Assembly: GCA_015059105.1 (NCBI GenBank)
Contig: SVBB01000001.1
Location: forward strand, 75,936-139,935
Source of the DNA: Erysipelotrichaceae bacterium
GTDB lineage: Bacteria; Bacillota_I; Bacilli_A; RFN20; CAG-826
DNA: 64,000 bases
Reading direction: 5' to 3'
Of the stretch, positions 48,001 through 51,000 are shown in pieces (the first letter of the stretch is position 1; each line of letters starts with the position of its first letter). The position numbers were made by a program.

Positions 48001-51000
48001 TTATTATAATGACTACTTATTTATAAATAAAGTATAAAAAATGAATATTTTACAAAATTATAAATAATTATTTATTATGCATTCAAAATGACTTTTGAAA
48101 CATTAATGATATTTTCAATGTCTTCGATTGAGGAAGATAAATCAATAGTGGCGACATTTTCGTTATTAACTTTGACAAAGTATTTTAAGTCACTGTTTTT
48201 GATTATTTGGTAATCAGAGAAACTAGAAGATAAAGCTGAATTAACAACGATATTCTTGTTTTCTGATAATGTCAGATTCAAAACAATAGATTCAATACCG
48301 AAATATTCATTAGTTTGAGTATTTTTATATCCGTTAATAAGATATTTTCCGTTAGAAATATTATCAATTTTGGATAAATCCAAAGTGAAGAAAGATTTGT
48401 TAGAAGATATGAAACTAGATAATGCTTCGCTTAACCCAGAAAAAGTAGTAGCTTCCGCTTGGTAAGGAACAACATATCCGTCAAGAGGTTCGCTGCTAGT
48501 AGAAGAACTAGTTATCAACGAACTAGATAAAGAACTAGTGTTGTTATTTCCACATCCACCTAATGCAAATGAAATTAATAATAATACGAATGTTTTTTTA
48601 TTCATGAGCATCACCTTATATATAAATTATTTTATTTTATTATTCTCTATTCAAGCGGGATTTTGTTTCTACATTTTTTACAAAAGTGACGAAATGTCAT
48701 TCTCACTTAAGACTTTTATCCCTTTTGAGGAGAAATATTCGGCTGTATAACCTTGGCCATCAATTAATATATTGGAGAATGAATATATAATTATTCATCA
48801 TTTATTAATAATATGGGCTATTGTTATTGATATGGATTATACATATCGGTAATGATTTTATTAAGGTAATCTGCAGGATCGTTATATATTGGTTTAGTGG
48901 AATCTAAATAATCAACGCTATAAAACATCTTTTCTGGTAATCTTTTATAGATACTTGGCCAGTCCGACCAGCTTTTCTTAACGAGCTTAAAATTGTTACC
49001 AAAAACATCAGCAAATCGTTTTTCTAGTTCTATAAATGAGTCTTCGTTATTACTTGGCATAAAATTAAGTTCTATTGGGTAACGATTAAAATCGACATCA
49101 AATTCATTTTTGAATAATTCAAAATAATTTTTAGCATCACTAATCGTTAAAGGTATTTTTGTTGTTTTATTAATTTCTTCTTTATACGAAACACCATCTA
49201 AAACATAATCATAATAAACGAATCTTTCGGTGGCTTGGCTAATTTGATTAGCTTTATTGACTGCAAAATAATCGTTTATAACAATATCAAGGTTATTATA
49301 TAGAAATATAAGCAGTGCTTTTCTAAAATTAGTAGACTTAATAGCCTCATTATAAACTGGCGTGGTTTTATCTCCGCTTATTAAATGAAGTGAATACATT
49401 ATTCTTATTTTGTTTCTACCAAACGTATAATCATCATACTGATAATCGGCGTCTTCACTAAGGTCTAAGATATCAACAATATCATTTTCATTGTCAAATC
49501 GATAAGAGGAAGAAGACTCTTCTTTATCGTTATTTAATACAAATCTAATTTCACTAAGATAATTATTATTCTTTGTTTTTAACAAGTAAGTGTGATTAGC
49601 ATAGTCGATAGTGTATTCTCCGTCCGCGAAAACAAAATCCTGGTAGTTGAGCGTTTCTTCATGGGATAATGACCATTTATCAACCATTTCTTTGTTAATC
49701 GGAAAGATATTAATGTTGTACCCAATATCAATATTTTTATCAAAAGCAATAGAGAATGTTTTGTCATCTATTTTCTTCATATCAGTGATATGAGAAAAAG
49801 TATCTTGATCGTACATATTATCGTTATAATAATAATAAGAATCTTTTATATTCTTTTTAATGAGGTTATATGTATAGATAAAATCATCAGAATTTATTTG
49901 CCTAATATTATCAAGCTTATAATCTTTCCAATATGCATCTTTGATTGAAATGGTGACGATTTGATTAGCGATATTAATTGTATCAATTAAGTCATATGAT
50001 ATTTCGTTATTAACTATTTTAAAAAGTCCACGGTTGTTCGTTGGAAGTATCTTATCAAAAAGAGTTGAATAATAATCAAAATAATAACTTTCTTTTGTTT
50101 GAAAATAGTTTTTAATAGAATAGCCTTTATTTATTAAATAAGTTTTAATCTCATCTCTATTTTTATTAGATATTTTTTTAATCTCATCTCTATCTTTGTT
50201 AGTAATATATTCGTTACAAATTATAAGATGTTTATAATCGGCTATATTTGCTTTGTCGTTTAGATTATAAAAGCGAGATTTTTGTAGACTGCCTTTGTAC
50301 ATAATTGAAGGCAAAAACACGCCTTCCTCTACCATTTTCTTGTCTAATTCTATTGTTTGTCGAAAGCGTTCACCTTTATTAGATATACTCATCACTTTGT
50401 TTATTTCGGCAATAACATTATCTTTTGATGCATAATCAAAACCTTCGTAAGTATAGGAAAAAGGAGCGTTGTTACATGAAACACTCATCAGTGTGATTAA
50501 GATAGGACAAATCTTCTTATATAACATTGTTCTCGATGTCCTCTATAATGTGATAATTATAGCATAAGAAAATAAAGAACCAATATTTCCTACCGTTATT
50601 CCAGTATTATTGTTGTTGAAGACTGGTTCCAATTTACAAAAGTGAAGAAATGTCATTCTCGCTTAAGACTTTAATCCCTTTTGAGGAGAGATATTCGGCT
50701 GTATAACCTTGGCCATCAATTAATTTATGAGAGAATGTACCATCATAAATTTGATTAACTCCACAGGAAGGGGAATACTCTTTGAGAATAACAGTAGTGA
50801 TGCCGAGATACATGCAGATGTTATAAGCTTTTTCTGCACCTAATGCGAACTGCTTAGTGACATCTTTACCAATAGAGTTGATAACTTTGTCGCCTTTCCT
50901 TTCGCTTGGTTTTCTCGGAATGGATAAGCCACCTTCAACTTCTGGGCAGAAGGGGATCAATTCATATTTTTCGAGTAAATCTTTAATTAATGGGTTGTAA

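Follow-up and report, generated by a model that had tools for sequence, protein, structure and literature searches.

In streptococci, CIMEs and the tandem accretion of integrative elements in the 3' ends of housekeeping genes have been described (PMC5704250, which cites Pavlovic et al. 2004). PMC5361080 and its references, among them de Vries & Wackernagel 2002, Prudhomme et al. 2002 and Jackson et al. 2009, describe models of homology-facilitated illegitimate recombination (HFIR) and displacement. Here we analyze a 64-kb window, the whole stretch of DNA studied, from an uncultured herbivore-gut lineage of Erysipelotrichaceae. In this window the 3' end of tudS is present twice as a direct repeat, once within the gene (copy B) and once downstream (copy A), and two predicted lipoprotein genes, Lp567 and Lp176, lie behind the gene.

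The locus shares with the streptococcal CIMEs (PMC5704250) integrase-less DNA between direct repeats that derive from the 3' end of a target gene left intact, as well as tandem units. It differs in that no integrase-bearing relative was found at this site in a set of 160 tudS loci, each unit is a single gene (0.6–1.9 kb), and the repeats are of very unequal length. As in Campbell-type insertion-duplication, direct repeats of exactly one homologous segment flank the inserted DNA, no similarity extends past the repeat ends, and the target gene stays intact since the segment includes its 3' end; here, however, a circular donor is missing, as are a plasmid backbone and genes for replication or selection, the circle would have to be a 1956-nt molecule, and the repeats are 93% identical instead of identical. 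The likeness to HFIR and to displacement at Rhs, CDI and T6SS loci lies in a conserved upstream gene end as the sole anchor, a new module that adjoins the conserved gene, an old 3' end that is pushed distally with its downstream gene and kept as an orphan, and repeated rounds that leave units in series with remnants of the conserved end between them. Unlike the genes at those loci, tudS encodes a housekeeping Fe-S enzyme and not a polymorphic toxin, and its C-terminus is unchanged (A and B differ in one residue). The cargo consists of lipoproteins instead of toxin-immunity pairs, with two units in one strain lineage.

Layout of the insert behind tudS

The features of the locus, by window coordinates, are as follows.

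46897..47424, plus strand: dUTPase_2 gene (Pfam PF08761, E 6.6e-41), right-hand limit of the variable slot, in convergent orientation
47444..47471, no strand: bidirectional intrinsic terminator, shared between the genes on the tudS side and the dUTPase gene that converges on them
47490..47978, minus strand: Mem162, predicted membrane protein of 162 aa, with homologues directly after tudS in relatives
48048..48057, minus strand: third tudS-end remnant, 10 nt (TTTTGTAAAA), the distal boundary of the insert
48058..50632, minus strand: whole lineage-specific insert (2575 nt, 27.8% GC) with the Lp567 unit, copy A and the Lp176 unit
48075..48605, minus strand: Lp176, predicted lipoprotein of 176 aa (MNKKTFVLLLISFALGGC..., Ser-rich linker), an orphan
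48606..48676, minus strand: spacer i3, ahead of the Lp176 gene, carrying a promoter-like TTGAAT-17-AATAAT plus a ribosome-binding site (AAGGTGA)
48677..48781, minus strand: repeat copy A, a non-coding fossil of the tudS 3' end, presumably displaced
48782..48823, minus strand: spacer i2, from the Lp567 stop codon to copy A, with the AT-rich motif AATAATTATAT at 48785-48795
48824..50527, minus strand: Lp567, predicted lipoprotein of 567 aa with a predicted, highly divergent OppA/DppA-type (SBP family 5, cluster C) fold
50528..50632, minus strand: spacer i1, from tudS to the Lp567 gene, unrelated to the sequence downstream of tudS in relatives
50633..50737, minus strand: repeat copy B, the functional last 34 tudS codons and stop, plus 1 nt
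50634..51065, minus strand: tudS / DUF523 (2-thiouracil desulfurase family), 143 aa, intact (Pfam PF04463, E 7.9e-43, full-length)

A preliminary description of this DNA had reported direct repeats of 104 bp and about 92% identity. The repeat is real: copies A and B are 105 nt long, 93% identical (blastn E 1e-39; mismatches at 4–7 of 105 positions), identically oriented and 1956 nt apart. Copy B is, as proposed there, the true 3' end of tudS, comprising exactly its last 34 codons and stop. The claim that copy A is a stranded piece of the gene still specifying nearly the same peptide was also borne out. Copy A translates as LIDGQGYTAEYFSSKGIKVLSENDISSLL followed by a stop, one residue off the real TudS C-terminus; it has no in-frame start, is preceded by stop codons and is a fossil tudS 3' end.

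Similarity between the copies breaks off abruptly at both edges, at one of them 1 nt beyond the tudS stop, and on neither side do the flanks of A and B resemble each other above shuffled controls. An upstream ATGATG match was rejected as an extension of the repeat, being no better than such controls. Compared with the tudS end of a sister strain (contig L005), copy B has 2 mismatches in 105 nt, and its private substitutions (about two with L005 as reference) are synonymous. Copy A carries two private substitutions, one of them non-synonymous (L to F), and three clustered mismatches at its upstream edge. The synonymous changes in B together with the non-synonymous one in A fit one live and one decaying copy.

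Both lipoprotein genes had been placed between and beside the repeats. As a bracket around the two this geometry is wrong: Lp567 is the only gene between the 105-nt repeats, and Lp176 lies outside, downstream of copy A. Homology of the L005 tudS end and spacer to the window picks up again at 48057, below which the window is collinear with the tudS-Mem162 spacer of relatives. The 10-nt remnant motif found at this boundary occurs four times in the window against about one expected, and three junctions lie at or within about 12 nt of the same TTTTGTAAA(A) sequence. The insert consists of two unrelated single-gene units, Lp567 with its 105-nt dead copy and Lp176 with its 10-nt remnant.

Long contigs from several samples and assemblers cross both repeats, and an assembly artefact was rejected since the same arrangement occurs in independent assemblies from several samples. 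The Logan contig L004 (1982 nt) starts and ends inside the repeat. It was rejected as a circular element because its ends are the expected k=31 de Bruijn break at a 34-nt stretch shared by A and B.

Spacer i1 contains an extended -10-like box (TGCTATAAT) and a ribosome-binding site (AGAGGA), together with a weak branched hairpin that precedes a T-run and has no significant fold (z = -1.6); the spacer bears no similarity to the sequence after copy A. None of the spacers folds significantly better than shuffles, either as an attC-like structure or as a terminator after tudS. The element at 47444..47471 is the sole terminator-like site within 47.3-51.3 kb, and its L005 counterpart shows compensatory changes in the stem. 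The sequence AATAATTATWT stands just before both tudS remnants, its only two sites in the window; it was picked post hoc, and 9 matching nt are not unlikely between two AT-rich stretches of 40 nt.

The GC contents of Lp567 (27.6%) and Lp176 (29.0%) are the two lowest of all 54 window genes, which stand at 36.5%, with z-scores of -2.9 and -2.4, respectively. The GC3 of both is 24% (z -1.9). The low GC noted earlier is confirmed as a rank, its estimate of 20–25% is wrong, and the two genes are compositionally deviant. Part of the low GC could come from the N/K/I/Y-rich composition of the Lp567 family, the homologues of which in contigs L007 and L008 likewise have a GC below that of their own contig.

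Distribution of the insert among relatives

In the sister strain L005, which has 97% nucleotide identity to the window (99.3% identity for the TudS protein), tudS and Mem162 are directly adjacent. The flanks are 95–97.5% identical, and the junction of tudS with the Mem162 spacer corresponds to the position of the 10-nt remnant in the window. At the genus level, the order tudS-Mem162-dUTPase with the same conserved tudS-Mem162 spacer is found in at least nine contigs, and Mem162 homologues lie directly 3' of tudS in L090, L010, L011, L014, L179, L180 and L182. Mem162, which matched no known family, is the ancestral downstream neighbor of tudS in the genus and lies outside the recent insert. At the family level, tudS and the dUTPase gene are directly convergent in eight contigs. 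Neither the insert nor a duplicated tudS end is present in any outgroup (L090, L010, L011, L014, L179–L183, L012 and L013, and likewise L015, L016, L091–L093 and L097). A search of 160 further tudS loci in genomes and metagenomes, run with a positive control, found no tudS-end repeat downstream of tudS.

These comparisons show that the convergent gap between tudS and the dUTPase gene is a small gene-gain hotspot in this group of uncultured herbivore-gut Erysipelotrichaceae, with three states: tudS-dUTPase in the family, the addition of Mem162 in the genus, and the further addition of a 2.6-kb AT-rich insert after the tudS stop in the lineage of the window. The insert itself is a strain-lineage-specific insertion in this hotspot. 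All states needed for the comparison (family, genus, sister strain and near-identical strain) are present in metagenomes, and in this lineage the tudS-dUTPase junction recurrently takes up strain-specific genes for surface and membrane proteins.

The preliminary description had regarded the insert as a compositionally deviant acquisition, and its absence from L005 and from the genus- and family-level contigs agrees with this; conservation of the arrangement in distant relatives, which would have spoken for an ancient structure, was looked for and is not seen. The acquisition had also been called recent. It is strain-lineage-specific, but copies A and B differ at 7 of 105 positions and two haplotypes that both carry the insert are about 2% divergent, so that the event is about as old as within-species diversity. 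Compared with contig L009, the window is a mosaic of identical blocks and blocks 2–3% divergent, one of which spans YgjP-tudS-Lp567 and ends near copy A. The species recombines heavily.

Origin of the insert

No integrase, transposase or resolvase was found in ORFs of at least 120 aa across the 64-kb window. PHROGs, INPHARED blastn, PLSDB tblastn and an IMG/VR scan revealed no phage, plasmid or viral relatives, plasmids, phages and viral contigs yielded no circular donor with the tudS segment, and no tRNA or other RNA gene that could act as an att site lies in or near the islet. The insert does not look like a transposon or insertion sequence, there being no transposase and flanking duplications of 105 nt and 10 nt; the only inverted matches found are weak and AT-rich. 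Nor does it look like an integron gene cassette, with no integrase, no Rfam match and spacers that fold no better than shuffles.

Recombination anchored in the tudS 3' end, by insertion-duplication or by 3'-end displacement, is the likeliest origin of the insert, and we believe, with somewhat better than even confidence, that the lipoprotein units were imported through this homology and stacked in the hotspot with no dedicated recombinase. The incoming DNA, derived from a related donor or a small circular intermediate, would have brought in Lp567 preceded by a tudS 3' end. This end would have been the sole homology used to recombine with the resident chromosome, either by Campbell-type insertion-duplication or by one-sided HFIR, the latter following the logic of the 'C-terminal displacement' at Rhs/CDI/T6SS loci. 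Copy B, the incoming one, would now complete tudS, and the resident end, copy A, would have shifted downstream together with its follower Lp176 and be decaying. The Lp176 unit was probably an earlier addition at the same point by a microhomology join. A dedicated recombinase would not have been involved.

Sharp repeat edges with unrelated flanks are what an insertion through one homologous segment should leave when donor and recipient diverge from the stop codon on. Also in favor of this reading are the direct tudS-Mem162 junction of L005, the absence of the insert from all outgroups, the substitutions in B and A, the lack of recombinase genes in the window and of a like repeat at the 160 other tudS loci, the heavy recombination of the species, the separate import of Lp567 and its L005 homologue, and the lowest GC among 54 genes. 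The Campbell-type integration suggested earlier is viable and close to our preferred reading: one homologous segment is repeated, with unrelated sequence beyond both ends. Against it counts that it needs a circular intermediate of unexplained origin, and no circle was found among plasmids, phages or viral contigs. In line with HFIR and displacement, the new module is followed by a resident 3' fragment (copy A) that has kept its orientation. HFIR would involve 3–10 nt of microhomology at the illegitimate junction; the 9–10-nt match to TTTTGTAAA(A) at the distal end of the insert and the 7-nt CATTCTC match, followed by three mismatches, at the upstream edge of copy A are ambiguous in this respect. 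Classical HFIR usually deletes recipient DNA and does not duplicate it, which counts against this route here. The clustering of junctions at TTTTGTAAA(A) also looks like a preferred recombination site and counts against the preferred reading. Donor context was sought in contigs with tudS-Lp567 lacking copy A and in contigs with tudS-Lp176-Mem162, and none of either kind was found. The substitutions among A, B and L005 form no clean donor/recipient mosaic, about 100 nt having no power to discriminate, and polarizing A against B with L005 and L090 to tell donor from resident was abandoned for too few sites.

A preferred site is the substance of an alternative that we consider unlikely, in which the tudS 3' end (core about TTTTGTAAA) is the attachment site of a site-specific recombinase and the two units are bounded by att copies. 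The units would be decayed integrase-less remnants (CIME-like), or cassettes mobilized in trans and accreted in tandem. In its favor, the direct repeat is the 3' end of the target gene, leaves tudS intact and stops exactly at the stop codon, as in target-gene-restoring elements. The foreign composition and the same short AT-rich motif directly before both remnants are in keeping with it, and the three tudS-end copies in a row that part the two units resemble attL-CIME-attI-element-attR accretion (PMC5704250). However, tyrosine and serine recombinases, excisionases and transfer genes are all absent from the window, the units amount to just 0.6 and 1.9 kb with a single gene each, and phage, plasmid and viral relatives are missing, as is the repeat at the 160 other tudS loci. 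The repeat lengths, 105 nt and 10 nt, are also very unequal. The Lp567-family genes of L005, L007 and L008 lie at other locations, with unrelated flanks and no tudS remnant, and same-sample contigs hold only the integrated form or repeat breaks (among the latter the 1982-nt contig), with no excised or empty-site variant. A further, very improbable reading is that the tudS end, with its TTTTGTAAA core, is a dedicated capture site that stacks integrase-less single-gene surface-protein cassettes by means of a recombinase encoded elsewhere in the genome and regenerates the tudS end each time. If true, this would be a so far undescribed integron-like cassette array in uncultured gut Erysipelotrichaceae.

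The insert might instead be ancestral for the species, with L005 having lost the 2.6-kb segment by deletion between short TTTTGTAAA repeats. We regard this as improbable. The 9–10-nt direct repeats around the segment could mediate a precise deletion, the divergence between A and B (4–7 of 105) is at least that between the window and L005, and the insert-bearing haplotypes are already about 2% apart; yet the tudS-Mem162 junction is uninterrupted, with the same conserved spacer, in other species of the genus (at least nine contigs). Many losses would be needed, against one or two events for a gain on the window lineage, and the GC of the insert is the most deviant in the window. It is very doubtful, too, that unequal crossing-over or slippage produced a local tandem duplication starting 105 nt before the tudS stop, with one downstream part later replaced or diverged, even though the repeats are direct and 1956 nt apart and a same-strand lipoprotein gene follows each of them. 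A repeat identity of 93% should leave downstream DNA about 93% identical, whereas similarity stops 1 nt after the stop codon and the sequences after A and B are no more alike than shuffled controls. Lp567 and Lp176 show no similarity to each other (best E 4.7), and neither has a paralogue within the window. On the same grounds, a segmental duplication during expansion of a lipoprotein family, the other mechanism put forward in the preliminary description, is rejected.

Under the preferred reading, import anchored in the tudS 3' end, the islet is a clear but ordinary small-scale gene gain that reveals no new mechanism and settles no open question. It is a clean natural case of a small accessory islet built beside a housekeeping gene without mobile-element machinery.

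The two predicted lipoproteins

The only match to Lp176 among 5.8e9 proteins was itself, 'MAG: hypothetical protein E7178_00655 [Erysipelotrichaceae bacterium]'. It belongs to no Pfam, NCBIfam or PHROG family, and an AF2 model from the single sequence was unusable (pLDDT 35).

Judged by eye from the sequence, the signal peptide at the N-terminus of Lp567 (MLYKKICPILITLMSVSC) ends in ...MSVSC, and the lipobox cysteine C18 is at least 90% conserved in the family alignment A4. Only four homologues were found in the same 5.8e9 proteins, the family has five close members in public data, and no GTDB genome was found to encode it. Lp567 itself matched 0 Pfam families, with no PF00496 match above the gathering score, and the family profile alone reached only E 0.35 against DppA. 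The distant relatives P0005 and P0008 from a family-profile search pass the SBP_bac_5 (PF00496) threshold. An AF2 model, the input alignment of which included distant SBP relatives, has a pLDDT of 79.6, and Foldseek assigned it a probability of 1.0 to OppA/DppE/AliD/AmiA despite low TM-scores (0.3–0.44). The top 50 PDB matches are all solute-binding proteins of this type, nearly all of them binding peptides, nickel or chitooligosaccharides. The model suggests that Lp567 is a very divergent OppA/DppA-type substrate-binding lipoprotein of a tiny family. Its earlier characterization as low-complexity does not hold, given a windowed entropy of 3.55 bits (3.65 for GlgP) and the confident model.

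Lp567 shares the overall fold of the pneumococcal orphan OppA-family lipoproteins AliC and AliD (8qlh, 8qlc; Foldseek probability 1.0). Like them, it is a lipoprotein apart from ABC permease genes and present in only some strains; unlike them, it has no direct Pfam SBP_bac_5 match, and its identity to them is only 12–15%. No ABC permease or ATPase gene occurs in the 64-kb window or beside the Lp567 homologues. Orphan SBPs are known, so this function is compatible with the lack of ABC linkage. Lp567 and Lp176 probably have a role in diversifying the cell surface or solute capture between strains.

The analysis uncovered a family of OppA-like lipoproteins that is very rare and highly divergent. 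It varies even among strains with 97% nucleotide identity, a variation of use for strain typing and for thinking about the diversification of surface and nutrient uptake. L005 holds a 57%-identical Lp567 homologue on the other side of Mem162. The dS between the two is about 1.8, against about 0.1 for flanking genes, and their similarity is limited to the ORF, so that Lp567 and its L005 homologue are separate imports.

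The duplicated tudS end

Within 44-54 kb, the repeat finder returned a single outstanding direct repeat, copy A at 48677-48781 and copy B at 50633-50737 (105 nt, 93% identical, 1956 nt apart; blastn E ~1e-39). The surrounding features, in the reading direction of tudS (2-thiouracil desulfurase family), are listed below.

50634-51065, minus strand: tudS/DUF523, 143 aa (Pfam 2-thiour_desulf, E 8e-43)
48824-50527, minus strand: 567-aa predicted lipoprotein ORF (Lp567), after tudS
48677-48781, minus strand: copy A, between the 567-aa and 176-aa ORFs
48075-48605, minus strand: 176-aa predicted lipoprotein ORF (Lp176), beyond copy A
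47490-47978, minus strand: 162-aa membrane-protein ORF (Mem162), after Lp176
47444-47471: bidirectional terminator between Mem162 and dUTPase_2
46897-47424: dUTPase_2 gene, convergent with the minus-strand genes on the tudS side

Copy B comprises exactly the last 34 codons of tudS, its stop codon and one extra base, which places one repeat bound 1 nt past the stop. Copy A, when translated, yields the C-terminal tudS peptide apart from a single L-to-F replacement; it has stops just upstream and is devoid of an in-frame start, and is thus a fossil gene end, as the preliminary description proposed. The flanks of A and B aligned no better than shuffled controls, so the repeat is sharply bounded. 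The observation holds and was in most respects accurately described; its picture of a two-gene island bracketed by the repeat is slightly off: Lp567 alone is bracketed, and Lp176 lies beyond copy A.

The window matches a 115-kb contig from JGI metagenome 3300021279, and an independent 116-kb ENA contig of a near-identical strain (L009, 99.2% identical) carries the identical arrangement, which is also present in contigs from further samples. Short contigs terminate within the repeat. One Logan contig (L004, 1982 nt) has both ends inside a 34-nt stretch identical in A and B; it was rejected as a circular molecule because a k=31 graph must break there, and its ends are no evidence for a circle.

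Base composition was computed for the 54 window ORFs of at least 120 aa, minus two inside longer opposite-strand ORFs. The lipoprotein genes gave the two lowest GC values, 27.6% for Lp567 (z = -2.9) and 29.0% for Lp176 (z = -2.4), against a mean of 36.5% (sd 3.1) for the other 52 ORFs; GC3 was 24.3% in both versus 32.8% (z = -1.9). The deviation holds up but is less marked than the 20-25% GC estimated beforehand would imply.

The tudS-dUTPase slot in relatives

The sister strain (L005/L006; flanks 95-97.5% identical in DNA, neighbouring proteins 96-100%) has the order tudS-Mem162-Lp565-dUTPase, with neither the 176-aa gene nor copy A. Its Lp565 (L005 5604-7301), a homologue of Lp567 (57% aa, 68% nt identity), lies on the far side of Mem162. 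At the genus level the closest GTDB genome, 'Erysipelotrichaceae bacterium SIG220' (L090; tudS 83%, GlgB 97% aa), reads tudS-Mem162-dUTPase without further genes. L010, L179 and L180 share this order, which is partly visible in each of the shorter contigs L011, L014, L181 and L183; L182 reads tudS-Mem164-DUF898-dUTPase (DUF898 protein at 6569-7294). At the family level (tudS 66-71%) the two genes are directly convergent in L012, L013, L015, L016, L091-L093 and L097, with a gap of ~25-45 nt, and L094 and L095 hold a 413-aa membrane protein (8458-9705). A duplicate tudS end was absent from all these sister, genus- and family-level loci and, with a positive control run, from all 160 tudS loci from metagenomes and genomes. 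Alignment to relatives, the check proposed in the preliminary description, thus favours insertion: they are without the 2575-nt segment at 48058-50632, which is specific to the window's strain lineage. The slot is a recurring site of gene gain. The terminator hairpin is kept between the window (47444-47471) and L005 (~7325-7350), with paired stem changes (GAATGG/CCATTC versus GAACGG/CCGTTC).

In L005, L090 and L179 the tudS ORF ends in ...CTTTTGTAA, then AA, and runs straight into a conserved spacer bearing the Mem162 promoter region. In the window this spacer resumes at 48057, starting TTTTGTAAAA (48048-48057), so that a tudS-end repeat of 9-10 nt borders the complete insert on both sides. 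Copy A terminates in the TTTTGTAAAA motif too, which occurs four times in the window versus about one expected. The region thus reads tudS with copy B, Lp567 unit, copy A, Lp176 unit, 10-nt remnant, ancestral spacer and Mem162, each unit being followed by a tudS-end piece (105 nt and 10 nt, respectively). The AT-rich, partly palindromic motif AATAATTATWT has its sole window sites at 48062-48073 and 48785-48795, at the 3' edges of the Lp176 and Lp567 units, respectively, and both sites immediately precede a remnant of the tudS end; it was picked post hoc and could be a chance match.

Measured against L005, A and B have about two private substitutions each; those of B are synonymous, one of A's is non-synonymous, and a further three mismatches cluster at the upstream edge of A. 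The two copies differ at 4-7 of 105 positions, about as much as the strains differ from each other. Between window and L009, blocks without differences alternate with blocks that diverge by 2-3%, and one of the latter spans YgjP-tudS-Lp567 and ends near copy A. Over 40001-58000 the differences are confined to blocks at ~54.5-55.7, 48.7-51.6 and 41.7-44 kb, with zero differences in the stretches between. This is a within-species recombination mosaic: two haplotypes already have the arrangement, and recombination in the species is frequent.

The predicted lipoproteins

Lp567 has a lipoprotein-type N-terminus (...MSVSC) and, when computed, proves not to be of low complexity, contrary to the preliminary description. 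Only four homologues were found among 5.8 billion proteins (97, 57, 47 and 46% identity), none in GTDB species representatives and none in the phages, plasmids or viral contigs searched. A five-sequence profile run against 1.8 billion cluster representatives retrieved distant relatives, seven in all, with E from 9e-12 to 2e-4; four match Pfam SBP_bac_5, two of them above the gathering score. The broader alignment matches solved OppA-family proteins (AmiA, the Vibrio chitooligosaccharide-binding protein), whereas the narrow one by itself reached only E 0.35 to DppA. All 50 PDB matches listed by Foldseek for the AlphaFold model (pLDDT 79.6) are solute-binding proteins of this kind (probability 1.0, TM 0.3-0.44, best E 2e-11); nearly all of them bind peptides, nickel or chitooligosaccharides (AliC/AliD, OppA, DppE, PrgZ, MppA, NikA). 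All the above indicate that Lp567 is a very divergent predicted family-5 substrate-binding lipoprotein. As with AliC and AliD, the pneumococcal orphans, no permease gene accompanies it. Purifying selection acts on it (dN/dS 0.35 vs L009, 0.16 vs L005).

The dS between Lp567 and its L005 homologue is ~1.8, compared with ~0.1 for flanking genes, and their similarity is limited to the ORF. A translocation linking the two was rejected on these grounds; they are independent imports of one rare family, at positions 0.6 kb apart.

Lp176, which is unrelated to Lp567, shows a clear lipobox (LGGC) along with a Ser-rich linker. In NCBI it is annotated as hypothetical in an Erysipelotrichaceae MAG; the homologue search returned the self-match only, and modelling gave no usable structure. 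A third predicted lipoprotein (53399-54445, 348 aa, signal ...LTAC, no Pfam family) is genus-conserved (44% identity in L090) and adjoins a ParA/Mrp-like ATPase gene.

Origin of the segment and other window features

The outline given in the preliminary description, an acquired and compositionally foreign islet with a fossil gene end, is right; some of its details are not. The islet most likely, though far from certainly, arose by recombination with the tudS 3' end as sole homology. This could have been a Campbell-type single crossover between the chromosome and a small circle, or a one-sided homology-facilitated illegitimate event at the tudS 3' end, following the reasoning put forward for the 'displacement' arrays of T6SS, Rhs and CDI loci (PMC5361080). 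Similarity would stop at the stop codon, the point beyond which donor and recipient were different; tudS would remain intact, and the old tudS end would be kept downstream with the older Lp176 unit. We infer these individual steps; the search found no donor or intermediate. Site-specific integration with later decay, resembling CIME-like accretion (PMC5704250), would fit a direct repeat made of a gene end, and junctions that cluster at TTTTGTAAA, but it is unlikely given the lack of a recombinase in the window, a site unused in 160 other tudS loci, Lp567-family members elsewhere without tudS remnants, and very small units. Still less probable is a deletion in L005, which the 9-10-nt repeats would permit but which parsimony disfavours in view of the outgroup contigs from the genus.

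Tandem duplication within a lipoprotein family, the other alternative raised earlier, is wrong, since the two proteins are unrelated and the repeat is sharply bounded. Transposition was rejected as the two flanking duplications differ greatly in length and no transposase or integrase is encoded by any window ORF of at least 120 aa; an integron was rejected for want of an integrase and of an attC-like fold, which was searched for. The islet is a new example of an already known kind of event, and its main value lies in an unusually complete comparative series and a rare, strain-variable OppA-like lipoprotein family.

Elsewhere in the window, a thiol-activated (cholesterol-dependent) cytolysin homologue (2872-4461; PF01289, E 2e-53) neighbours an unassigned 234-aa ORF (2164-2868), a RhuM-family protein (569-1465) and five tRNA genes (1546-2085); 569-4461 is possibly a toxin islet beside tRNA genes in this herbivore-gut Erysipelotrichaceae MAG. 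Downstream of polA, a 469-aa minus-strand ORF (32437-33846) joins Fpg/MutM domains (residues 1-271) to a dephospho-CoA kinase CoaE domain (residues 280-451) in an apparent gene fusion. The enzyme TudS degrades thiouracil compounds, and 4-thiouridine synthesis genes (IscS-like class-V aminotransferase and ThiI, 23535-25825) share the window with tudS; as they lie 25 kb apart, this is probably coincidental.
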